From assembly GCA_964460255.1 (NCBI GenBank), contig CAYWPY010000001.1, positions 1 through 56,576 of the forward strand: a DNA stretch of 56,576 bases, in the 5' to 3' direction. Positions 13,687-44,487 of the stretch are shown here, in pieces (the first letter of the stretch is position 1; each line of letters opens with the position of its first letter). The notes under the pieces are model-generated. The model saw only the letters and a program-made list of their open reading frames with translations, was not told the origin of the DNA and made no database searches. A program made the translations under genes and the position numbers. Origin of the DNA: an uncultured Candidatus Saccharibacteria bacterium. Its GTDB lineage: Bacteria > Patescibacteriota > Minisyncoccia > Minisyncoccales > PWPS01.

Positions 13687-15306
13687 ATGAAAAGATATAT
13701 TTTCGTCGCCGGCGGAGTAATGTCCGGGATAGGGAAAGGAGTTGCTACCGCTTCAATAGGAAGAATCTTAAAGAGTAAAGGTTATAAGGTTTCCGCGGTA
13801 AAAATAGATCCCTATGTCAATGTTGATGCGGGAACAATGAATCCGGTAGAACACGGCGAAGTTTTCGTCACTAAAGACGGAGGAGAATGTGATCAAGATC
13901 TCGGTAATTACGAAAGATTTTTTAATCAAGAGTTTACTACCGATAATTACATTACAACCGGAAAAGTTTATAAAGCGGTTATTGAGCGGGAAAGAAATCT
14001 TGATTATGACGGAAAATGTGTTGAAGTAGTTCCCGATATCCCAAAAGAAACAATAAAGCGAATAGAAAAAGCGGCTGAAAAAGATAATGCTGATTTTACT
14101 TTAATTGAAATAGGTGGAACAATTGGTGAATATCAAAACCTTTTATTTTTAGAAGCGGCTCGAATGATGAAATTAAAAAACCCCGATGGGGTTCTTTTTG
14201 TATTGGTTAGTTATCTTCCAACTCCAAAGACAATAGGGGAGATGAAGACGAAACCGACCCAAAACGCAAGCCGAAGTTTAAATGAAGCCGGAATACAGCC
14301 GGATATTATCTTAGGTAGAGCGGAAACTGCTTTGGATGAACCACGGAAGGAAAAAATCTCTAATTTTTGTAATATCGATAAAGATTATGTAATCTCGGCT
14401 CCTGATGAAAAATCAATATATACTATTCCCTTAAATTTTGAAAAAGAAAATCTGGGTGAAAAAATATTAAAAAAATTCAATTTAAAAGCGAAAAAAAGTA
14501 ATTTAAAAAAATGGCAAAATTTAGTTAAAAGTAGCCAAAAAACAACTAAAGAAGTAAATATTGGAATAGTTGGAAAATACTTTGAAACCGGAAATTTTAC
14601 TTTAACCGACTCTTATATTTCAGTGATTGAGGCGGTGAAACACGCCAGTTGGGATTTGGATTTAAAAGTTAATATAGATTGGCTTTTTTCTGAAGAATAT
14701 GAAAAAAATGATCAAAAAATAGAAGAAATAGATGATTATGACGGAATTATTGTTCCCGGTGGATTTGGAAGTAGGGGAGTGGAAGGTAAAATTAAGGTAA
14801 TTGAATATTGTAGAAAAAATAAAATCCCTTTTTTAGGGCTCTGTTTAGGAATGCAATTGGCGGTTATAGAATTTACTCGAAATGTATGTGGCTTGAAAAA
14901 TGTAAACTCTACTGAATTTGATAAAGATTGTCAAACACCGATAATTGACATAATGGAAGCACAAAAGAAGTTAATTGAAAATAAGAATTTCGGAGGGACA
15001 ATGCGCTTGGGTAATTATCAGTGTAAAATAAATAAAAAAAGTAAAGCTTACCAGCTTTACGGAAAAAAGAAAATATTGGAAAGGCATCGACACCGTTATG
15101 AATTTAATAATAATTATCTACCAGAATTAGAAAAAAACGGCCTTATTTTGGCCGGTAAAAATCCTGATAGTAATTTAGTGGAGATAATTGAACTTGCTGA
15201 TCATCCGTTTTTTATTGGAGTTCAATTTCACCCCGAATTTAAATCCGGACCATTGAATCCTCATCCACTTTTTGTTGGTTTTTTAAAAAGTATTAAAGAA
15301 CGTTAA
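13687..15306 (+). CDS. pyrG: CTP synthase
   Basis: N-terminal [10 protein letters not shown] synthase domain and a C-terminal glutamine amidotransferase ([21 protein letters not shown]). Confidence 0.97.
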
Positions 15307-15565
15307 CCAGTTTAACTTTTTTACTCTTTCCGTTAAACTTTTTTTTGTTTTTGGTTTGAAATTCAACAATCCCATCTTTAATAGCGTACAGAGTGTCATC
15401 TCTACCTTTGCGAACATTTTTTCCGGGAATAAACTTTGTTCCTCGTTGTCTAACAATTATTGATCCCGCTTTTGCTTTTTGCCCACCGTAAAGCTTAACT
15501 CCTAAATATTTTGGATTTGAATCTCTTCCCAGTCTTGTTGTTCCAGACGATTTTGTTGTTGCCAT
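15293..15565 (-). CDS. rpmA: 50S ribosomal protein L27
   Basis: [29 protein letters not shown]...[12 protein letters not shown] matches L27. Its 3' end overlaps the pyrG 3' end by 14 nt (convergent). Confidence 0.93.
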
Positions 15566-15580
15566 AGCTTTTTTTAAATT

Positions 15581-15781
15581 ATGAAATCTAAAGAAATAAT
15601 AACAAAATTAAGTACAATTGTCAATAAAAATAATTTTTGGTGGTTTTTAATAGTATTACTAACCGCAACTCTTTTTTATATGATTGGTTGGATTGATTGT
15701 AAAAAAGAAATGAAAGAACCGATTAAAATTGAAGATCCGGAAGAAATGTCTATAACTGACTTTTACTTTTTTAGATTTTAA
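15581..15781 (+). CDS. small single-pass membrane protein, hypothetical
   Basis: 66-aa ORF with one hydrophobic helix ([20 protein letters not shown]). No family recognised and no clear RBS. Confidence 0.4.
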
Positions 15782-15879
15782 AAAAATAAGAAAATAGGGG
15801 TCTTTAATTAAAAATTACACTTTTTTAAGAACAAGGGGCTCTGAGAGCTGATTAGAGCTATTTTTATAATGATTGTGAC

Positions 15880-16854
15880 TTACTGGTCATTATTTTTTTC
15901 TTTATTTTTTAAATTTTTGCCGCTATGATACTTTTTATGAATCTCTCGTAATTTTTTGCTCGTCATGTGGGTATAGATTTGGGTAGTAGAAATATTTTTA
16001 TGTCCCAAAAATTCTTGTATAACTCGTAAGTCAACACCTTGAGTCAATAAATCGGTAGCGTAACTGTGACGTAAAGTATGTGGAGTGGTTCCTTTTGGGA
16101 GTCCGGTTTTCTTTACGTATTTTTTTACGATGTTTTCTACCGATCTTGTTGATAATCTTCGGTCACCGGTTTTAGGACCTCGATAACGAATAAAAAGTGG
16201 CTTTAAATCATCGTTTCTGGTCGATAGATAATCATCTAAGGCATTAACGGCTCTTTGGGAAAAATAAACCGTTCTAGTTCGGTCTCCTTTACCGGTGACC
16301 ACGACTTCCAAGTCTTCAGTGTTGGTTTTTATATTTATTTGATCCTTATCCAGACCAACCAATTCAGCAACTCTAAGTCCGGTTGAAAATAAAGTTTCTA
16401 AAATTGCCTTATCTCTTAGACCGGTTCTTTTACTTAAATCGGGGGCATTTAATAATTTTTCAATTTGATCCAAGTTGAGAAACTTTAAAAAATCTTTTTC
16501 ATCCTCTTTCGTTAATTTTACTTTTTCTGCCGGAAGAGCTTCAATATTCCAATCGGCGAAAAAATTAAGTAAATTACGCAGGGCGATTAGATAATAGTTT
16601 CTTGTTTTCTTAGTAATCGGCTTGTTTTTATGGCTATTTTGATTTGATAGATAAACTCGATAATTCCAAATATGCTTGTCAGTTAGTTGGTGAGGTTTTA
16701 AATCTTGATTATTTGATTTTTTTAACCAATCCACAAAACGGGAGATAAAGCGGCGATAAGTATCTTGTGAGCTAGAGGACAAGCCTTTCTCAATATCTAA
16801 ATATTGATAAAATTGATCCAAATGTTCAATAATTGATTTATTTGATTTTTTCAT
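15880..16854 (-). CDS. Xer-type tyrosine site-specific recombinase
   Basis: 324 aa with an N-terminal core-binding (SAM-like) domain. Catalytic residues lie in GLRVAELVGL (Arg), HTLRHSYATDLL (HxxR) and GHKNISTTQIYTH (His...Tyr). Confidence 0.9.
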   Translation of the reverse strand: MKKSNKSIIEHLDQFYQYLDIEKGLSSSSQDTYRRFISRFVDWLKKSNNQDLKPHQLTDKHIWNYRVYLSNQNSHKNKPITKKTRNYYLIALRNLLNFFADWNIEALPAEKVKLTKEDEKDFLKFLNLDQIEKLLNAPDLSKRTGLRDKAILETLFSTGLRVAELVGLDKDQINIKTNTEDLEVVVTGKGDRTRTVYFSQRAVNALDDYLSTRNDDLKPLFIRYRGPKTGDRRLSTRSVENIVKKYVKKTGLPKGTTPHTLRHSYATDLLTQGVDLRVIQEFLGHKNISTTQIYTHMTSKKLREIHKKYHSGKNLKNKEKNNDQ

Positions 16855-16889
16855 AGGGTGGAATGGGTGAATTAAATTACCTATCTTAA

Positions 16890-16917
16890 ACTTCGATAAA
16901 TATACATTATGCGAAGT
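16890..16917. other. dif-like Xer recombination site (11-6-11)
   Basis: The minus-strand reading is ACTTCGCATAA-TGTATA-TTTATCGAAGT. It has 15 consecutive nt (CGCATAATGTATATT) identical to E. coli dif GGTGCGCATAATGTATATTATGTTAAAT, and 18/28 overall. The outer hexamers ACTTCG/CGAAGT are inverted repeats. It lies 36 nt upstream of the recombinase ATG. Confidence 0.6.
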
Positions 16918-16931
16918 TTATTATTTGTATC

Positions 16932-16961
16932 ATTCTAACAACTTTTCCACTACTCTGTCAA
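16932..16961 (-). promoter_or_regulatory. promoter candidate for the recombinase gene
   Basis: On the minus strand: TTGACA (16961-16956), 18-nt spacer, TAGAAT (16937-16932). This puts the dif-like site inside the transcribed leader. Confidence 0.45.
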
Positions 16962-17003
16962 TAGTCTTTCTTAAGCTCCTCTTATTAAATCTGTTAGTTA
17001 CTA

Positions 17004-17369
17004 CTACAAAGATGACAACCTTTTAACTCTTTCTACTTTTTTTTGAAAAGAGTTAAATAATGAATCTATAAATTGATTGAAAGCGTTTTTTATTTTTTTA
17101 GTTAATCTTTTAAAAAAGTTTTCTTTTCTGGTTTCTACTTGATCTTCGATTATTTTTTGTCTTCTTACAATTTCATCTTCCAAAAAAGAAAATACATTAT
17201 CAATTTGATTTAAGATTAAATCACCGACGGAAACTGCCGCTTCTCTAATTTCAAGCACTATTCCCCTATCGTGGTCTATTCCTATGATCTCAACATCTTC
17301 TTCCGAATAGACCAACTGAGAATTTAAAATAAAAGTAAAAATGATAATCAGTAGTAATATCTTTTTCAT
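17004..17369 (-). CDS. secreted or anchored small protein, hypothetical
   Basis: 121 aa with an N-terminal signal-like segment MKKILLLIIIFTFILNSQLVYS. ATGA overlap with the gltX stop. Confidence 0.6.
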   Translation of the reverse strand: MKKILLLIIIFTFILNSQLVYSEEDVEIIGIDHDRGIVLEIREAAVSVGDLILNQIDNVFSFLEDEIVRRQKIIEDQVETRKENFFKRLTKKIKNAFNQFIDSLFNSFQKKVERVKRLSSL

Positions 17370-18886
17370 AATTTAGACCCGGCTTTTTTAATCCTTTTAA
17401 TCGATTCTTCCCTACCCAATATATAACTTACTGCAAATGGTCCGGCACTTGCCTTTTTTCCGGTTAAAGCAGCTCTTAAGGGCCATAAAAACCTCCCTCT
17501 ATCATCCCAATTGTTTGCCATCTCTAATAATTTCTCACTAACACTTTCTTTATTCCAATTTTCTATATTAGACAATACTTCTATCGCTTTATCAAGTGAT
17601 TCCTTTATTTCTTGATCAGTCATCTCTTTCCATTTGAGTAAGTCGGGATCAACATCTATTTTGTCGAAAAAGAAATCGGAAACTTCCACAATTTCAGCTA
17701 ATAATTTAATTCTGTCTTGATGCTCTTTTACTAATTCTTCTATCTGCCAAAATGAAAATGGTCTTCCATCTTTGGTTTTGTAATTTATCTTCAAGCTTTC
17801 ACCACCAATTGCCGCCGGTTGCTGATCCGATTCGTATCCGGGAGTTAAATAACCCTCTTCAATTAAATAAGGAATGCAAAGCTTTGCTATTCGTTCCGGA
17901 TCTGCCTTTTTTAAATGTAAAGTGTTTATGTATTCTAACTTTTCTTTATCAAAAACTGCTCCCGCTTTCTTACAGCGCTTAATATCAAATTCTTTTTCCA
18001 ATTCTTTTAAAGTGAAAAACTCTCGATCATCTCCCGGACTCCAACCCAAAAGAGCTAAGAAATTAACTAACGCTTCGGGAAGAAATCCTTCTTCTTTAAA
18101 TTCGGAAACGGAAACCGCTCCGAATCTTTTGGAAAGCTTTGATTTATCCGGTGCTAAAATTAAAGGTAAATGAGCGTAATTAATGGAATCAAAATTTAAA
18201 GCTCTCTGAAGCAAAATTTGCTTCGGGGTATTCGAAATATGATCCTCCCCCCTAATCACATCACTAATTTTCATTTTGTAATCATCCACAACACAGGCTA
18301 AATTGTAAAGCGGTTCATCTAAATTTTTAGCAATTACAAAATCTCCAATTAAATCAGTTTTTACACTCACCTCTCCCCTAATTTTATCCAAAAACGTAAC
18401 TTCCTCTCCGGGATTAATTTTAAATCTAATTACGAAATCATCACCGTTTTCCATTCTTTTTTCCGCCTCTTTTTTGGAAATACTGCGACAAGTTCCTTTG
18501 TAGATGGGGGCTTCTCCTTTTTCTCGTTGCTCTTCCCTTTCTTTTTCCAATTTTTCTTGACTGCAAAAACAAGGGTAAGCTTTTTCTTCTTCCATTAGTT
18601 TTTTTATGTATTCTTTATATAAATCAGTCCTCTCACTTTGTCTGTATGGGCCTCTTTTTCCTTTTTTACCCGGGCCTTCGTCATATTCCAAACCCAACCA
18701 TTCTAAGCTTTCTATAATATTTTCTTCATAATCTTTTTTTGATCTTTCTTTATCCGTATCTTCTATTCTAAGAATAAATTTACCATTTTTATTTTTGGCG
18801 TATAGATAATTAAAAAGAGCTGTTCTAACGGAACCAACGTGGAAAAACCCGGTCGGTGATGGGGCGAATCTTACTCTTATTTTCAT
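17366..18886 (-). CDS. gltX: glutamyl-tRNA synthetase
   Basis: Class I HIGH region (PSPTGFFHVGSVRTA) and KMSKS as KLSKR. 506 aa. Confidence 0.95.
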   Translation of the reverse strand: MKIRVRFAPSPTGFFHVGSVRTALFNYLYAKNKNGKFILRIEDTDKERSKKDYEENIIESLEWLGLEYDEGPGKKGKRGPYRQSERTDLYKEYIKKLMEEEKAYPCFCSQEKLEKEREEQREKGEAPIYKGTCRSISKKEAEKRMENGDDFVIRFKINPGEEVTFLDKIRGEVSVKTDLIGDFVIAKNLDEPLYNLACVVDDYKMKISDVIRGEDHISNTPKQILLQRALNFDSINYAHLPLILAPDKSKLSKRFGAVSVSEFKEEGFLPEALVNFLALLGWSPGDDREFFTLKELEKEFDIKRCKKAGAVFDKEKLEYINTLHLKKADPERIAKLCIPYLIEEGYLTPGYESDQQPAAIGGESLKINYKTKDGRPFSFWQIEELVKEHQDRIKLLAEIVEVSDFFFDKIDVDPDLLKWKEMTDQEIKESLDKAIEVLSNIENWNKESVSEKLLEMANNWDDRGRFLWPLRAALTGKKASAGPFAVSYILGREESIKRIKKAGSKL

Positions 18887-18915
18887 GTTTTTTAAGTGTT
18901 TATCGTTTTAATAAT

Positions 18916-20049
18916 TTATTGAATTAAAAACTCTTTAATGTAAGCCGCTAAAATACGGCCGGCATCAGGTTTAGCAAATTGTTTGCTGTTTTTTTTCATT
19001 TCCTCTAACTGTTCGGGTAGAGAAAATAATGACTTAATTCTTTCTAAAAAGAAGTGTGGTGTCAAATTTTCTTCCTCCATAACAATTGCCGCTCCTTTAC
19101 TCGCTACTCGATAAGCGTTTTCCGCTTGATGATTCTGAGCCGCCTCCGGAAGAGGTATTAAAATACTGGGCTTGTTGTTGGCTAGTATCTCAAATATAGT
19201 ACCCGCTCCCGCTCTGGAAACTATCAAATCAGCTACAGCATAGGCATCTTTAAGTTCATTCTGATTAAAAAATGAAAAAGGATGATAAAATTTTTCCGTA
19301 TCTTGTCTTAACATTGCCTGACTCTCACTCTTTACTTGTTCATTATTTTTTTGTCCGGTAATGTGAATTATTTCGTAACTTTCTAAAAGCTGAGGTAAAA
19401 TTGCTAAAATGGTATCGTTAATTCGTATTGATCCTTGAGATCCTCCCATAACTAAAATTATCGGCTTACCTCCTTGTAAGTCAAATCTTTTTTCTGCCTC
19501 TACTTTACTTCCTGTGATTAATTCTTTTCTAATCGGATTTCCAATTACGAATTTCTTATCCGGCTTTATTCCTTTTGTTTTTTGGAATGCGACAAATATC
19601 TCCGTTGCAAATTTAGAAACAATTCTATTTGCTAATCCCGGTGTAGCATCGGACTCATGTAGAATAATCGGAATCTGCATTATTTTACCGGCAATAACTA
19701 CCGGAACCGAACCGTAACCACCTTTCGAAAAAATTAAATCCGGAGAAATCTTAAAAATATGAATAATCGATTGAATTATGCCGATCGGTATTTTAAATAA
19801 ATCAATTAGGTTAAGTAAAATAGAAAGAGGAGTAAAATATCTTCGCAATTTTCCCGCTAAAATATATCTGGTTTCCAAACCTTCTTCAGTAAAACTAAAT
19901 TCGGGAATGCTATCTTTAGGAGCAACATAAAATAACTCTAATTGTCTATCTTTCGGAAATTGTTTCTTCAGATTTCTAATCACCGAAACTAAAGGAAAAA
20001 CATGACCTCCTGTTCCGCCGCCGGTAAATATTACTTTGTTTTCTTTCAT
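18916..20049 (-). CDS. murG: undecaprenyl-PP-MurNAc-pentapeptide GlcNAc transferase MurG
   Basis: GGGTGGHVFP N-terminus and GT28 C-terminal region (GGSQGS, SRAGAGT). Position downstream of ftsW. Confidence 0.93.
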   Translation of the reverse strand: MKENKVIFTGGGTGGHVFPLVSVIRNLKKQFPKDRQLELFYVAPKDSIPEFSFTEEGLETRYILAGKLRRYFTPLSILLNLIDLFKIPIGIIQSIIHIFKISPDLIFSKGGYGSVPVVIAGKIMQIPIILHESDATPGLANRIVSKFATEIFVAFQKTKGIKPDKKFVIGNPIRKELITGSKVEAEKRFDLQGGKPIILVMGGSQGSIRINDTILAILPQLLESYEIIHITGQKNNEQVKSESQAMLRQDTEKFYHPFSFFNQNELKDAYAVADLIVSRAGAGTIFEILANNKPSILIPLPEAAQNHQAENAYRVASKGAAIVMEEENLTPHFFLERIKSLFSLPEQLEEMKKNSKQFAKPDAGRILAAYIKEFLIQ

Positions 20050-20065
20050 AATTGTAATTAATTAA

Positions 20066-21163
20066 TTAAGATTTCGAAATGTTTAATAAAATCCCCAAAG
20101 CAGCCAATTCGGTAATAAAATGGGATCTTCCTTGACTTATAAAGGGAAGTGGAATTCCGGTAATCGGCAGGATTCCACTCATTGCGCCAATATGAATAAA
20201 GGCTTGAAAAAAAATCCAAAAACTTATTCCTACCGCCATTAAACTCATAAAGGGATCCCTTTTTTCTTTACTGATTTTAAAGCAGCGCCAGGAAAAAAAT
20301 AGGAATAAAATTATCAGCAATAAACTTCCAACGAATCCGGCTTCTTCAGCATAAGCGGCAAATATTGAATCGCTTTCCGGAATTGGTAAAAAATATTTCT
20401 GGTTCCCCATTCCGAATCCGGCCCCTAACAAACCTCCGGAACCAATTGCGATCAGTGCTTGTTTAGCTTGATGAGGTAGTTCCTTTAATTCAATAATATA
20501 TCTAAACAGATCCTTAACTCGTTGTAACCTGTAATCGGAAAATAAAATAAATAAAGCAAAAAGAGGACCTCCGGTAACGATCAAAGTTAAAATATGAGAT
20601 AAGGGGGTTTGATCAGCAAAATAAATTGAAAAACCGGAAAGAATAATGACTAATAAAGTACTTAAATCGGATTGAAGCCACATTAATCCAACCACAATTA
20701 AAGATACAAATATAAAAGCTAAAAAATATTTTTTATCTTTCTTATCTTCTTTGCTTGATAACCAACTGGCTAAATAAAGAATAAAGGTCAGTTTTAAAAA
20801 CTCAGCCGGTTGAATGGTAATTCCTCCCAAACTAATCCATCTACTTGCTCCCCTCACTTCAACTCCCAACCCGGGAACAAAAACTAGAATATTTAAAATT
20901 AAATTTAAAAAAAGTAAATGGGGAGCATACTTTTTCATTAAATCCAGAGGGATTTTATAAGCAATAAAAGCAATTACCAGCCCCGGTAAGAAACCGAAAA
21001 GAAACTGTTTAGTTATTGCCCCAAATAAATTAAGAGCTCCTTCTTCAGTAGAATTAGCAATTACTCCCATCGAAACACTGGTAAAAATAAGGAAGCCGAA
21101 CAGAAGTATTAATCCGGTACTAATTATTAAACTATAATCAATTTTCTCAGTCTTTTTTGGCAT
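20066..21163 (-). CDS. ftsW: SEDS-family peptidoglycan polymerase FtsW
   Basis: 365 aa with about 10 TM segments. Located between murD and murG. Confidence 0.88.
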   Translation of the reverse strand: MPKKTEKIDYSLIISTGLILLFGFLIFTSVSMGVIANSTEEGALNLFGAITKQFLFGFLPGLVIAFIAYKIPLDLMKKYAPHLLFLNLILNILVFVPGLGVEVRGASRWISLGGITIQPAEFLKLTFILYLASWLSSKEDKKDKKYFLAFIFVSLIVVGLMWLQSDLSTLLVIILSGFSIYFADQTPLSHILTLIVTGGPLFALFILFSDYRLQRVKDLFRYIIELKELPHQAKQALIAIGSGGLLGAGFGMGNQKYFLPIPESDSIFAAYAEEAGFVGSLLLIILFLFFSWRCFKISKEKRDPFMSLMAVGISFWIFFQAFIHIGAMSGILPITGIPLPFISQGRSHFITELAALGILLNISKS

Positions 21164-33600: not shown

Positions 33601-34113
33601 ATGCAGATAATAGATTTAACAAAAAAAGCAGTAACCGAATACGTAAAGAATAAAAAAAGAATATCTCTTTCTGAAAATATCGATAAAAAATTAAAATCTA
33701 AATCAAGGCCTCTTTTCGTAACTATTAAAAAAGAAAAGGCTTTACGTGGTTGTATGGGAACCCTTGAAGCAACGGAAAATAATTTAGGCGAAGAAATTAT
33801 CTCCAATTCAATTGCCGCTTGTCAAGATCCTCGCTTTAATCCTTTAACCGAAGCGGAATTAGAAAAATTAAATTATGAGGTTAACATTTTAAAAGAAAAG
33901 CAATTGATTAAAAAAGATGAATTGGAAGACGTAAACCCAAAAGAAGAAGGAATCATTGTCAAGGAAAATCAAAAAGCGGGTCTACTCCTTCCCGGTATAG
34001 AGGGAATAGATGATCCGAAAAAACAATTAAAAATCGCCCTTAAAAAAGCAGGAATTGAAGGAGAAGATTATAAAATACTAAAATTCAAAACCGATAAATA
34101 TGAAGGAATGTAA
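33601..34113 (+). CDS. amrA: AMMECR1-domain protein (AmmeMemoRadiSam system protein A)
   Basis: AMMECR1 signature LRGCMGTLE plus downstream QDPRFNPL and LLPG. Confidence 0.85.
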   Translation: MQIIDLTKKAVTEYVKNKKRISLSENIDKKLKSKSRPLFVTIKKEKALRGCMGTLEATENNLGEEIISNSIAACQDPRFNPLTEAELEKLNYEVNILKEKQLIKKDELEDVNPKEEGIIVKENQKAGLLLPGIEGIDDPKKQLKIALKKAGIEGEDYKILKFKTDKYEGM

Positions 34114-34846
34114 AAAAATAGTAAGTTATTTTTCTGACTTTCTGAAGGAAGAAAAAGAAAAAATATCCCCCACACTTCTAAAGTGTCGAGAAAGACACCT
34201 TAATCACTTTGAAAAGTGGTTGGCAATCAACGGAAATGAAGATGCAACTGCAGAAGAAATTACCGAAGAAACCTTATTAGATTATAAAAGATTTATAAAA
34301 AATAAAACTTCTTCTCGAGGAAAAAAAATAAGCAAAGATACTCAAAAAAACTACCTGAGAACTATTCGCTTTTTCTTTGAATTTTTAAAAAATAAGAACG
34401 TTGATTGTATTAATCCGGAAAAAATCCGTCTCACTAAAAAAGTAGAAAGTGAAATCCAACAAATAGTTAATCACTATTTCAAAACCAAGGGATTAACCCT
34501 TGAAGAACTTAAAAAAAGTGCAAAGAAAAAAGAGATAATTTATTCCCGATATACCAAACCGGCTAAACAATTATTGGAACTGTCGGGTTCAATTGAAAAA
34601 GCAAAAAAAGCAATTACTATTGTTGCTAACTGGGCTAAATCGAGAAATCTCGATTATACGATTGAAACCGTTTTAAAGAAGTGGTTGGAGATAAAAAATC
34701 TAAAACCCAAAAAAATAGAAAAAAAGCCTTTTTACAGAGGAGATCGAATGATCAAAAAAAGAGGAAAGTGGTATGTAATCGATAAACAAGGAGAATGGCT
34801 GGAGTTTGCCGGAAAAGAAGACGATATTACCTGGAAAGAAGATTAA
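34100..34846 (+). CDS. integrase core-binding (SAM-like) domain protein lacking a catalytic domain
   Basis: The N-terminal ~115 aa parallel the N-domain of the Xer-type recombinase at 15880..16854 (ISKDTQKNYLRTIRFFFEFLKNKNVDCINPEKIRLTKK versus ITKKTRNYYLIALRNLLNFFADWNIEALPAEKVKLTKE). The remaining ~130 aa have no R..HxxR..Y motifs. 14-nt overlap with amrA. Confidence 0.65.
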   Translation: MKECKKIVSYFSDFLKEEKEKISPTLLKCRERHLNHFEKWLAINGNEDATAEEITEETLLDYKRFIKNKTSSRGKKISKDTQKNYLRTIRFFFEFLKNKNVDCINPEKIRLTKKVESEIQQIVNHYFKTKGLTLEELKKSAKKKEIIYSRYTKPAKQLLELSGSIEKAKKAITIVANWAKSRNLDYTIETVLKKWLEIKNLKPKKIEKKPFYRGDRMIKKRGKWYVIDKQGEWLEFAGKEDDITWKED

Positions 34847-41645: not shown

Positions 41646-42095
41646 ATGAAAAAGACAGTTCTTTTTATTTTAATTGTAGTAATTTTATTTTCCCCACTAA
41701 TAAAGGCAGAGGAAAAGATAGTTCCATTATACGTTCTAAATTACGAAATAGCGGAAAATTTAAATTCTCAGGAGATGATCTACCCGGTTTATAGATCTAT
41801 TGATTTTAAATCACCCGTCCGGAATATTATTAACAAATTATTGAATATTAAATTTACCGAAAAGGAAAAGGAAATGGGTTTTTGCAGTGAATTTGAAAAA
41901 GATCACCGAATAACGGTTAAAGGAATTAATCTGAAAGACGGAATTCTAACCGTAGAATTTAATGACCCGGAACAGTTCACTACCGGAGGATCTCAGCGGG
42001 TTCTCATCTTAAAAGAACAAATTAAAAAAACATTGCTACAATTTAATTCCATAAAAAAAATAAATATTCTACCTGAATATTTATTTCAACCCTAA
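41646..42095 (+). CDS. secreted GerMN-domain-like protein
   Basis: Signal peptide MKKTVLFILIVVILFSPLIKA. The remainder fits the GerMN pattern (…PVYRSI…NKLL…GINLKDGILTVEFN…GGSQRVLILKEQIKKTLLQF…). Confidence 0.55.
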   Translation: MKKTVLFILIVVILFSPLIKAEEKIVPLYVLNYEIAENLNSQEMIYPVYRSIDFKSPVRNIINKLLNIKFTEKEKEMGFCSEFEKDHRITVKGINLKDGILTVEFNDPEQFTTGGSQRVLILKEQIKKTLLQFNSIKKINILPEYLFQP

Positions 42096-42099
42096 GTAA

Positions 42100-42125
42100 A
42101 AAACCCCGTTAAAAAACGGGGTTTT
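42100..42125 (+). terminator. rho-independent terminator (also the left end of the repeat unit)
   Basis: AAAACCCCGTT-AAAA-AACGGGGTTTT followed by A-TTT. Confidence 0.75.
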
Positions 42126-42127
42126 AT

Positions 42128-42156
42128 TTGACATAACTATATGTAAATTGTATGGT
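42128..42156 (+). promoter_or_regulatory. promoter of cassette copy 1
   Basis: TTGACA (42128-42133), 17-nt spacer, TATGGT (42151-42156). AAGGAGG at 42163-42169. Confidence 0.6.
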
Positions 42157-42176
42157 TTATGTAAGGAGGGATTAAA

Positions 42177-42830
42177 ATGAAAAAGATTGTTGTTCTTTTC
42201 ATATCACTACTATTAATTTTTTCTTTTACTTTTTCCGGCTTTGCAAATGAGGATCCAGCTGTGCAGGTGGGAGATGAAAGCTTAAGCGAGGAAGTCTTAG
42301 CTGCAAGGATTGAACAAGGCACTAATGGCGACCCAAAATTTCAGCTTGAAGAACATGAAGTTGTTATTCTTTTTATTAAATACGCACTGGTAAAAAATAC
42401 AATTGAAGTAATGGATACTGACTCCAACATGGATACAATTCATAAGAAGGCAGAGGAAAAAATAAATACACTATTAGAAAGAAATAATATAAATGTAGAA
42501 GAGCTGGAGGAGATAGGATCCTTGACTTATCAACAAGAGAAAGAAAATTATTCAATGTCCATAGGTTTAGATGTTTTAAATCAACACTACCACAAAGAAG
42601 CTAAAGAATTCGTTAGTAACCAGATGGTGGATGAAGCATTAAATAAATTAAAACTTGAAGTAGAACCAGAAAATATAGAGGAAATTAAGAGAAGAATTCA
42701 AACAACTCTAGTCGAAGCCAAAAAAACTGAACTTGTTTACGATAGACTGTTTGAAGAATATCAAAAAGGACTCTCTATCAATACTGATCAAGTTGACAGA
42801 GAAAAAGTAATTCAAAACTTGAAGTTTTAA
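42177..42830 (+). CDS. secreted protein, cassette copy 1 (possible SurA/PrsA N-terminal chaperone-like fold)
   Basis: 217 aa with signal peptide MKKIVVLFISLLLIFSFTFSGFA. The mature N-terminus NEDPAVQVGDESLSEEVLAARIEQ resembles the start of SurA-N-type chaperone domains. The function is inference only. Confidence 0.85.
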   Translation: MKKIVVLFISLLLIFSFTFSGFANEDPAVQVGDESLSEEVLAARIEQGTNGDPKFQLEEHEVVILFIKYALVKNTIEVMDTDSNMDTIHKKAEEKINTLLERNNINVEELEEIGSLTYQQEKENYSMSIGLDVLNQHYHKEAKEFVSNQMVDEALNKLKLEVEPENIEEIKRRIQTTLVEAKKTELVYDRLFEEYQKGLSINTDQVDREKVIQNLKF

Positions 42831-42835
42831 TAAAA

Positions 42836-42864
42836 ACCCTACTTAAAAAGTAGGGTCTTTTTTT
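42836..42864 (+). terminator. rho-independent terminator of copy 1
   Basis: ACCCTACTT-AAA-AAGTAGGGT followed by C-TTTTTTT. Confidence 0.75.
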
Positions 42865-42954
42865 ATTTTTAGGAGTGTTTCTAGTCGTTATTCTTATTTT
42901 TTAATTTGCTTAAAGTTAGTTCTAAAAAACCCCCGTTAAAAAACGGGGTTTTAT

Positions 42955-42983
42955 TTGACATAAATATATGTAAATTGTATGGT
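42955..42983 (+). promoter_or_regulatory. promoter of cassette copy 2
   Basis: TTGACA (42955-42960), 17-nt spacer, TATGGT (42978-42983). AAGGAGG at 42990-42996. Preceded by a copy of the 42100 hairpin. Confidence 0.6.
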
Positions 42984-43003
42984 TTATGTAAGGAGGGATT
43001 CAA

Positions 43004-43657
43004 ATGAAAAAACTATTTGTTCTTTTTATATCACTAATTTTAATTTTTTCTTTTACTTTTTCCGGCTTTGCAAATGAGGATCCAGCTGTGCAGGTGGGAG
43101 ATGAAAGCTTAAGCGAGGAAGTCTTAGCTGCAAGGATTGAACAAGGCACTAATGGCGACCCAAAATTTCAGCTTGAAGAACATGAAGTTGTTATTCTTTT
43201 TATTAAATACGCACTGGTAAAAAATACAATTGAAGTAATGGATACTGACTCCAACATGGATACAATTCATAAGAAGGCAGAGGAAAAAATAAATACACTA
43301 TTAGAAAGAAATAATATAAATGTAGAAGAGCTGGAGGAGATAGGATCCTTGACTTATCAACAAGAGAAAGAAAATTATTCAATGTCCATAGGTTTAGATG
43401 TTTTAAATCAACACTACCACAAAGAAGCTAAAGAATTCGTTAGTAACCAGATGGTGGATGAAGCATTAAATAAATTAAAACTTGAAGTAGAACCAGAAAA
43501 TATAGAGGAAATTAAGAGAAGAATTCAAACAACTCTAGTCGAAGCCAAAAAAACTGAACTTGTTTACGATAGACTGTTTGAAGAATATCAAAAAGGACTC
43601 TCTATCAATACTGATCAAGTTGACAGAGAAAAAGTAATTCAAAACTTGAAGTTTTAA
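43004..43657 (+). CDS. secreted protein, cassette copy 2 (mature part identical to copy 1)
   Basis: 217 aa. It differs from copy 1 only in the signal peptide (MKKLFVLFISLILIF versus MKKIVVLFISLLLIF). The nucleotide sequence is identical to copy 1 from codon 13 through the terminator, as aligned by eye. Confidence 0.85.
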   Translation: MKKLFVLFISLILIFSFTFSGFANEDPAVQVGDESLSEEVLAARIEQGTNGDPKFQLEEHEVVILFIKYALVKNTIEVMDTDSNMDTIHKKAEEKINTLLERNNINVEELEEIGSLTYQQEKENYSMSIGLDVLNQHYHKEAKEFVSNQMVDEALNKLKLEVEPENIEEIKRRIQTTLVEAKKTELVYDRLFEEYQKGLSINTDQVDREKVIQNLKF

Positions 43658-43662
43658 TAAAA

Positions 43663-43691
43663 ACCCTACTTAAAAAGTAGGGTCTTTTTTT
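43663..43691 (+). terminator. rho-independent terminator of copy 2
   Basis: Same ACCCTACTT-AAA-AAGTAGGGT stem-loop plus a T-run. Confidence 0.75.
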
Positions 43692-43781
43692 ATCTTAAGG
43701 AATGTTTCTAGTCGTTATTTTTATTTTTTAATTTGCTTAAATTAGCTCTAAAAGAAAAACCCCGATAAAAGCGAGTTTTAT

Positions 43782-43810
43782 TTGACATAAATATATGTAA
43801 ATTGTATGGT
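43782..43810 (+). promoter_or_regulatory. promoter of cassette copy 3
   Basis: TTGACA (43782-43787), 17-nt spacer, TATGGT (43805-43810). AAGGAGG at 43817-43823. The upstream hairpin copy is degenerate (CCCCGATAAAAGCGAG). Confidence 0.6.
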
Positions 43811-43830
43811 TTATGTAAGGAGGAATTCAA

Positions 43831-44487
43831 ATGAAAAAACTATTTGTTCTTTTCATATCACTAATTTTAATTTTTTCTTTTACTTTTTCCGGCTTTGCAA
43901 ATGAAGATCTAGCTGTGCAGGTGGGAGATGAAAGCTTAAGCGAGGAAGACTTAAATGTCCGGATTGATAAAAGTGCCAACACTCGTGATCCACACAAAAG
44001 ACTTGAACCACACGAAATTGTCTCCAGTTTTGTTTTATATGCGTTGGTAAAAAACACTATCGAAAGAGTAAAACCTAGAACCGATATGGATAAAATCCAC
44101 GAGGCAGCAGAAAAAAAACTGGATGAGGGATTAAAGCTAAATGATATGGGTATGGGAGAGGTGGTGCAAAACGGACCCAGAACGGAAAAACAGATAATGG
44201 AAGGGGTCACCACTTCCGTAGTTTTGGAAGTTTTAAATCAACACTACCACAAAGAAGCTAAAGAATTCGTTAATACCCAGATGGTGGATGAAATACTAAA
44301 TGAATTAAATTTTGAACTAAAACTAAAAAATAAAGAGGAAATTAATAAAAAAATTCGACAAACTCTTGTTCAAATAAAAAAAGCAGATCTTGTCCGCAGT
44401 GCAGTATTTGAAGAATATCAAAAAGGATTTACTATTTACACCAACAAAGTTGATAAAGAAAAAGTAACTCAAAATTTGAATTTTTAA
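43831..44487 (+). CDS. secreted protein, cassette copy 3 (diverged mosaic paralogue)
   Basis: 218 aa with a signal peptide and first ~39 residues almost identical to copies 1 and 2. There are conserved islands (YALVKNTIE, VLNQHYHKEAKEFV, QMVDE, FEEYQKG) between strongly diverged segments. Confidence 0.85.
   Translation: MKKLFVLFISLILIFSFTFSGFANEDLAVQVGDESLSEEDLNVRIDKSANTRDPHKRLEPHEIVSSFVLYALVKNTIERVKPRTDMDKIHEAAEKKLDEGLKLNDMGMGEVVQNGPRTEKQIMEGVTTSVVLEVLNQHYHKEAKEFVNTQMVDEILNELNFELKLKNKEEINKKIRQTLVQIKKADLVRSAVFEEYQKGFTIYTNKVDKEKVTQNLNF

Follow-up and report, generated by a model that had tools for sequence, protein, structure and literature searches.

A dif-like site in the leader of a recombinase gene

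The stretch of DNA analyzed here (the window; 56,576 nucleotides, contig CAYWPY010000001.1 of assembly GCA_964460255.1) comes from an uncultured Candidatus Saccharibacteria bacterium, a member of the Patescibacteria or Candidate Phyla Radiation (CPR). On its minus strand it contains a 28-bp element resembling the recombination site dif, located between a predicted promoter and the start codon of a gene that codes for a tyrosine recombinase and that we designate xer (Table 1). A preliminary description of the window had interpreted this arrangement as a dif site placed at the replication terminus beside its own Xer gene, and every part of that interpretation that was tested turned out as predicted.

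The element shows the 11-6-11 layout of Xer/dif sites (two 11-bp inverted arms and a 6-bp central region) together with similarity to the dif consensus; its sequence and coordinates and the extent of the palindrome around it had been described exactly. It is identical to Escherichia coli dif at 19/28 positions, one more than the 18 counted previously, and these include the 15-nt run CGCATAATGTATATT that had been correctly noticed. The left arm and the central region (ACTTCGCATAATGTATATT) are identical to those of canonical XerCD-type dif variants present on other contigs (e.g., ACTTCGCATAATGTATATTATGTTAAAT; 19 contiguous nt). Between the two arms, 8/11 positions are symmetric, the differences being at inner positions. 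The 28-mer had been expected to be unique, and within the 56.6-kb window it is: no other match was found at ≤3 mismatches, none appeared in 100 shuffles, and with a weight matrix made from related sites it scored 35.5, the second-best window position reaching 7.2.

The xer product is a complete tyrosine recombinase of 324 amino acids (aa), as had been proposed. It contains a SAM-like N-terminal core-binding domain (PF02899, 44 bits) and a catalytic domain (Phage_integrase PF00589, 142 bits), and the six residues of the R-K-H-R-H-Y active site (R161, K189, H259, R262, H285, and Y294) do not vary among 32 orthologs and align with the catalytic motifs of XerD. The protein scored below the cut-offs of the NCBIfam equivalog models for XerC (TIGR02224; 234.7 bits, cut-off 335.15) and XerD (TIGR02225; 233.4 bits, cut-off 329.6), slightly below that of archaeal XerA (NF040815; 214.2 bits, cut-off 220) and well below that of XerS (NF003462; 124 bits, cut-off 267). 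Its top relatives of solved structure were E. coli XerD (132 bits) and Pyrococcus abyssi XerA (129 bits), XerH (5jjv) reaching 51 bits. These model and structure scores indicated a Xer-type recombinase with roughly the same distance to XerC, XerD, and XerA, and not a relative of XerS or XerH. The parallel with XerS/difSL drawn in the preliminary description therefore stands as regards architecture; since the protein is closest to XerD, XerC, and XerA, the likeness does not extend to descent. The closest homologs (50–92% identity) all belong to metagenome-assembled genomes of Patescibacteria/CPR, comprising Paceibacteria and Nealson-, Portnoy-, Wildermuth-, Falkow-, Magasanik-, Kuenen-, Jorgensen-, and Colwellbacteria. 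The organism of the window is a CPR bacterium of the Parcubacteria type.

One xer ortholog, in the Parcubacteria bacterium Greene0416_39 (VMEU01000003.1; locus L064, 10370-11632), carries an in-frame insertion of ~420 aa inside the catalytic HxxRH motif, between ...TPHTLRH and SFATDLL. The insert begins with Cys, ends with HN followed by Ser, and contains LAGLIDADG-type motifs (ILGYIYGDG and LAGFYDAEGN), and it looks like an intein inside the Xer recombinase.

The promoter TTGACA-18-TAGAAT reported previously ahead of the site was confirmed; it matches at 11/12 positions and ties with one other site for the top score in the scanned region 15200..17500. Transcription is predicted to start near 16925, which would place the dif-like site at about +9 to +36 of the transcript. 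The site begins 14 nt past the -10 element and ends 35 nt ahead of the ATG (16854). The absence of a Shine-Dalgarno motif before xer, which had been presented as distinctive, turned out not to be so: such a motif was found in just 8/62 open reading frames (ORFs) of the window, and the other 54 lack one, so that it was discarded as a special trait of xer.

Table 1. Features of the window around the dif-like site and the xer gene.
Feature	Position	Strand	Remarks
dif-like 28-bp site	16917..16890	-	left arm ACTTCGCATAA (16917-16907), central region TGTATA (16906-16901), right arm TTTATCGAAGT (16900-16890)
Extended palindrome AAACTTCG/CGAAGTTT	16919..16888	.	flanking AA/TT also kept in close relatives
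sigma-70-type xer promoter	16961..16932	-	-35 TTGACA (16961-16956), 18-nt spacer, TG-extended -10 TAGAAT (16937-16932)
Remaining 5' leader, site to ATG	16855..16889	-	without Shine-Dalgarno motif, like most window genes
xer, 324-aa Xer-type tyrosine recombinase	15880..16854	-	complete ORF; Pfam domains and catalytic residues
121-aa hypothetical protein	17004..17369	-	no Pfam match; last minus-strand replichore gene before dif; conserved synteny after gltX
gltX	17366-18886	-	conserved synteny upstream of the 121-aa ORF
rpmA	15293-15565	-	between xer and the plus-strand block
Conserved 66-aa ORF	15581-15781	+	between xer and the plus-strand block
CTP synthase gene	13687-15306	+	last gene of the plus-strand block

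Conservation of the site and its genomic position

The association between the site and xer was analyzed in 80 species-representative genome loci encoding an ortholog, each of ~20 kb and scanned whole with the site-derived weight matrix. A strong dif-like 28-mer was the best match in 69/80 loci and was located upstream of xer in all 69, at ≤150 nt in 51 of them and at 151–1500 nt in the other 18; in 68/69 it was, as in the window, the sole strong site. Of the 11 loci with weak scores, six showed a weaker site at the same place and most of the others had almost no upstream sequence on the contig. The position of xer within 150 nt downstream of dif in these 51 loci (35 nt in the window) is the arrangement of XerS/difSL-type modules. 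A reverse search of metagenome contigs using the site pattern alone yielded 93 loci, and in 71 of them a xer ortholog adjoined the site; the remaining loci were mostly too short on the relevant side or carried a canonical-type right arm (TTAAGTTAAAT).

Among the closest relatives (72–92% identity of the protein), a 30-nt block (AAACTTCGCATAATGTAnnTTTAnCGAAGTTT) varies at only two central positions and one arm position, amid flanks that can barely be aligned, and the gene order gltX - small ORF - site - xer - small ORF - rpmA - CTP synthase gene is kept. The dif-like site is thus under strong purifying selection, in agreement with the conservation that had been anticipated.

The position of the site with respect to strand composition and gene orientation was determined locally, within ±8–10 kb, the GC-skew set consisting of the 36 related loci that extend ≥5 kb in both directions. 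The window itself has positive GC skew as far as ~16 kb and negative skew beyond, and the cumulative maximum (16869) is found 21 nt from the site. In 30/36 loci the skew was positive to the left of the site and negative to the right, and in none was it reversed. The cumulative-skew maximum was ≤1 kb from the site in 18/36 loci and ≤2 kb in 26/36, with a median offset of 101 nt; in Proteobacteria, the median distance between dif and the skew maximum is ~7.3 kb (PMC2731167). The switch in gene orientation described previously around the site was also confirmed, and orientation converged on the module in 32/34 loci, with 209,780 coding bases on the plus strand and 13,950 on the minus strand to the left of the site (94% plus), and 20,533 and 180,932, respectively, to the right (90% minus). 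Since skew and gene orientation are confounded, genes of the same strand were compared: the coding-strand skew of plus-strand genes averaged 0.18 on the left of the site and 0.088 on the right (Mann-Whitney p = 0.004), and therefore an orientation-independent component also switches at the site. The local tests thus revealed both marks of a terminus, a skew maximum and convergence of the replichores, as predicted, and did so for the window as well as for some 30 independent species.

A recombinase gene located beside its own site is also typical of mobile elements (PMC1914069), and in one locus extra dif-like sites flank a methylase/Vsr block (see below). It is nevertheless extremely improbable that the site and the recombinase constitute the att site and the integrase of an integrative, integron-like, or invertible element, given that there is one site per locus within housekeeping genes in conserved synteny, that species representatives of many CPR classes encode xer, with 50–92% identity, and that the module consistently coincides with the switch in strand and skew.

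The extra sites just mentioned are found in the complete genome of a Nealsonbacteria (CP179889.1; locus L017, 2358-6049). They are two, mutually inverted, at 2358 (minus strand; ACGTCGCACAACATAGATTGAGTGACCC) and 6022 (plus strand; AAGTCGCACAAGGTATATTACACGACGA), and bracket a 3.7-kb block coding for a HATPase_c_3 protein, a C5 cytosine methylase, and a Vsr endonuclease, ~4–7.5 kb from the main dif. The arrangement recalls the Acinetobacter "dif modules", and the block might represent a defense cassette mobilized by Xer. The possibility of CPR elements integrating at dif was considered as well, and the scan of viral contigs with TTCGCATAATGTANNTT gave no evidence for it: nearly all of the 120 matches were canonical proteobacterial-type dif sites at the ends of prophages or integrating elements. 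Only IMGVR_UViG_3300033388_007429 (8.6 kb, 35% GC, classed as viral; locus L176) contained a CPR-like site, a single palindromic one without xer (ACTTCGCACAATATACATTATGCGAAGT, 2734-2761); this contig could derive from an element that uses a CPR dif for integration, or could be cellular DNA wrongly classed as viral.

Arm symmetry, putative operator half-sites and interpretation

In order to compare the two arms, 62 distinct sites were aligned and the symmetric positions counted. Positions 3/26 were G:C (25 sites) or T:A (24 sites), and positions 2/27 were C:G, T:A, or G:C, that is, three types of Watson-Crick pair. Total arm-arm covariation was above that of all 500 shuffles and of every slid register. 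Two positions, A8 and A21, were invariant and non-symmetric, and this pair could represent a built-in asymmetry able to order strand exchange. The covariation is the pattern expected if one protein specificity read both arms, and it suggests that a single recombinase acts in the lineage of the window, which we consider somewhat the better supposition.

According to the alternative, the site would be the dif of a classical two-recombinase system, in which the adjacent protein is a XerC-like or XerD-like partner, a second Xer is encoded elsewhere, and the linkage is regulatory or historical. The near-equal scores obtained with the XerC and XerD models agree with this, as do the differences between the inner positions of the window arms and the clearly asymmetric sites of some related lineages, such as the Falkowbacteria type ACTTCGCATAA-TGTATA-TTAATTAACCT; moreover, the genome of the window was seen over 56 kb alone, and in loci L019 and L045 a second paralog lies beside xer. 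However, the outer arm positions covary in such a way that the palindrome is kept, and the accepted single-recombinase sites difH and difSL are imperfect palindromes too (PMC3325230, PMC5357621). No second catalytic tyrosine recombinase is encoded in the 56-kb window, and L019 and L045 are the only 2/80 loci with one within ±10 kb, both with asymmetric sites, unlike that of the window. On balance we regard a two-recombinase system as unlikely here, though it is the most serious of the alternatives.

In the two loci with paralogs (L019, 1405-3720, from a Jorgensenbacteria; L045, 10001-12438), the paired xer genes are located downstream of the dif-like site. Those of L019 are arranged in tandem, and the first ORF codes for 454 aa with 35% identity to the window Xer. 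In such lineages, a single-Xer module may have evolved into one with two recombinases. As a candidate for a second Xer in the window, we considered the plus-strand ORF 34100-34846 (248 aa), 25% identical to Xer residues 3-127, which was rejected since it only contains an N-terminal SAM-like core-binding domain (PF13102, 30.5 bits) and no catalytic domain. In other loci this protein matched chiefly the N-terminal domains of xer products, and an ortholog of its C-terminal half was found only in L020.

The position of the site relative to the xer promoter was also compared across loci. Among those with proximal, same-strand sites, TTGAC was present 36–44 nt before the site in 33/49, with a -10-like element ~12 nt before it. 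Given this spacing, the site would span about +5 to +35 of the transcript, where bound protein would be expected to hinder transcription. When dif was located >150 nt from xer, a cognate 11-nt arm (≤1 mismatch to the dif of the same locus) was nonetheless found ≤70 nt from the xer start in 10/30 loci (5/18 GTDB loci and 5/12 distinct metagenome loci), 0.001–0.004 being expected per locus. In these half-sites one arm is kept and the other has decayed, the outer bases follow the lineage-specific dif, and all ten retained arms overlap a -10-like hexamer with the same polarity to xer. This pattern argues for selection on a putative binding of Xer at its own promoter. We discarded the half-sites being scars of dif-integrated elements as a general explanation, because the half-site of L033 is inverted relative to its full dif, in L036 the arm beside xer is not the one that simple integration would leave there, and the polarity towards xer is shared by all ten. 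Autoregulation, which the preliminary description had suggested and which had earlier been proposed for difSL-xerS (Le Bourgeois et al., 2007; PMC1914069), thus gains comparative support from the conserved promoter-site-ATG order and from the single-arm putative operators at xer promoters with a displaced dif; as far as we have found, this is the first evidence of the kind for the 2007 proposal.

Since the site lies so close to the predicted transcription start, the palindrome might merely be a transcriptional operator, as the single arms kept at xer promoters would also allow, or an RNA element (a 5' hairpin or attenuator) of the xer leader, in which the site is predicted to fold into a 13-bp hairpin (-12.7 kcal/mol, z = -3.05). 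We consider this very unlikely. Every base of the central 6 bp and of the inner arms agrees with canonical dif, the hairpin does not explain the invariance of A8 and A21, which are unable to pair, and no T-run or terminator was predicted at the site. In addition, the full site is found 150–1500 nt from xer in 18 GTDB and 12 metagenome loci, sometimes inverted and still intact at the skew switch.

A further observation on these promoters concerns a GC-rich inverted repeat that forms the 16–18-nt spacer between -35 and -10 in L006, L009, L017, L021, L029, L064, and other loci, followed by a T-rich -10; the window lacks it. Its sequence varies by lineage while pairing is kept (e.g., CCGTGttttggCACGG, ACGCCttaaaaGGCGT, and AGGCCatttgGGCCT). 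It was considered as a new regulatory RNA, and is better read as a terminator-promoter overlap, in which the xer promoter probably coincides in part with the intrinsic terminator of the gene upstream. In several loci, a GGGGAG motif upstream of the -35 corresponds to the 3' end of the upstream coding region.

Based on these results, we propose, with a probability of about 0.8, that the 28-bp element is the chromosomal dif of this Patescibacteria (CPR) bacterium and that the adjacent Xer-type recombinase acts on it, resolving dimers at the terminus. One recombinase would bind both arms as a homotetramer, as XerS, XerH, and XerA do, with the invariant A8/A21 pair supplying an asymmetry that could order strand exchange. 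Since the site lies between the -10 and the start codon, dif-bound Xer would prevent or impede xer transcription, resulting in negative autoregulation. Activation by FtsK would be possible; no ftsK gene was found among the window ORFs scanned.

Several points weigh against this proposal. Skew and orientation were local measurements and do not refer to whole chromosomes, and the window shows further, smaller orientation switches at 31.5–35.7 kb and 41.6–44.5 kb. With 56 kb of the genome seen, the rest may contain another dif-like site, another Xer paralog or a canonical xerC/xerD pair, and three loci of the reverse search (L109, L138, and L150) have a site but no xer within 1.7–9 kb on the usual side. 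A pair of co-evolving paralogs could also produce the arm covariation, and the sequences in the comparison share ancestry. As the inner arm (CATAAT/TATAAT/CTTAAT) is similar to a -10 hexamer, promoter function may account for part of the half-site conservation. Finally, binding, cleavage, recombination, and repression by Xer are predictions from sequence.

A broader reading, which we put forward tentatively as it appears doubtful at present, is that across Patescibacteria, the largest radiation of bacteria, chromosome dimers are resolved by a self-contained single-recombinase cassette in which dif would double as the xer operator and Xer as recombinase and repressor, the operator being under selection of its own, and that the cassette is possibly ancestral to the XerC/XerD pair. 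Separate selection on the operator is suggested because one cognate arm stays at the xer promoter after dif has moved, and the cassette could be the ancestral bacterial state because the distances of the protein to XerC, XerD, and archaeal XerA are equal and its site has retained the canonical dif core. If so, the unlinked XerC/XerD pair would have arisen from such a cassette by duplication.

Relation to known Xer systems and neighboring genes

Several dif systems based on a single, gene-linked recombinase are already known, namely XerS/difSL, XerH/difH, crenarchaeal XerA, and XerL (PMC1914069, PMC2731167, PMC2958812, PMC9765430). In streptococci and lactococci the xerS gene is likewise located directly downstream of dif at the terminus, an arrangement for which, in addition to autoregulation, protection against integrating elements has been proposed (PMC1914069). 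However, difSL is 31 bp long with an 11-bp central region (PMC5357621), whereas the window site has 28 bp, a 6-bp central region, and the canonical dif core. XerH of Helicobacter and Campylobacter is also a single recombinase acting on a palindromic site with conserved non-palindromic positions, and its dif is genetically linked to xerH in most species (PMC2731167, PMC3325230); the window protein is distant from it (51 bits to 5jjv versus 132 to XerD), and the difH sequence (TTGAAAACTATAATTTTCAA type) is unrelated to the window site. The XerL/dif system of Legionellales comprises a lineage-specific single recombinase and a palindromic site of ~29–30 bp near the terminus, which in Coxiella is found directly beside a xerL ortholog on a plasmid; it differs in recombinase lineage and site sequence, and the Legionella dif has not been described in the xerL leader (PMC9765430).

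With the classical XerC/XerD-dif system of E. coli, other Proteobacteria, and Bacillus, the window module shares the 28-bp 11-6-11 layout, the terminus position, and a protein whose best relative of solved structure is XerD. That system, however, has two paralogs, whose genes are far from dif and from each other, and asymmetric arms, whereas the window contains one linked gene and near-palindromic, covarying arms. In archaea, a single Xer protein, XerA, uses a 28-bp dif of bacterial type in the termination region (PMC2958812), and the XerA model is the one whose cut-off the window protein most nearly reached. In Crenarchaeota the predicted dif is close to xerA (PMC2958812). Differences are that the dif of Thermococcales is not beside xerA, that XerA is FtsK-independent, whereas at least one CPR bacterium (TM7x) encodes ftsK (PMC10768705), and that the organism of the window is a bacterium.

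Xer-related simple tyrosine recombinases of "Candidate" phyla, which may stand in for Xer, have been grouped as the "Cand" subgroup (Smyshlyaev et al., 2021; PMC8138268). The window Xer probably belongs to it, and the CPR taxonomy of its homologs is consistent with this. That study was a classification of proteins and did not deal with the recombination site, linkage, terminus position, or promoter architecture. In the literature searched, subscription-only papers excepted, we found no description of dif or of Xer-dif linkage in Patescibacteria, CPR, Parcubacteria, or Saccharibacteria. What sets this case apart is the combination of a protein from the XerC/XerD/XerA neighborhood, a canonical 11-6-11 dif core, and an arrangement spanning a whole superphylum. 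The Xer-related recombinases of candidate phyla, previously a mere sequence class, would thereby receive a cognate site, a genomic position, and a likely function. As a third bacterial lineage with a gene-linked dif, they bear on whether linked single-recombinase modules are ancestral or have arisen repeatedly. In practical terms, the 28-mer beside xer would be a simple terminus marker in CPR genomes, helpful when metagenome-assembled genomes are checked or closed and when growth is estimated from coverage; such estimates already make use of dif, from databases that we have not seen to include CPR.

The genes flanking the site are housekeeping ones: gltX and the putative murG and ftsW on one side, and rpmA, the CTP synthase gene, and the L9 gene on the other. 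Genes for the cell envelope and division extend to dif, with murG- and ftsW-like ORFs at 17366-21163 of the window (assigned by eye). In eight other loci (L033, L035, L036, L061, L065, L067, L070, and L079) a ftsQ-like gene (~280–355 aa, also assigned by eye) is located just upstream of dif, followed in some of them by an ORF for a small membrane protein (~50 aa). In many CPR lineages, the terminus seems to mark the end of the division gene cluster.

At 41646-44487, within an otherwise minus-strand region of the window, there are four successive plus-strand ORFs. The last three code for proteins of 217–218 aa and have near-identical upstream regions (ttatgtaaggaggGAttnaa) with strong Shine-Dalgarno motifs, rare elsewhere in the window, and the group looks like a tandem gene family.

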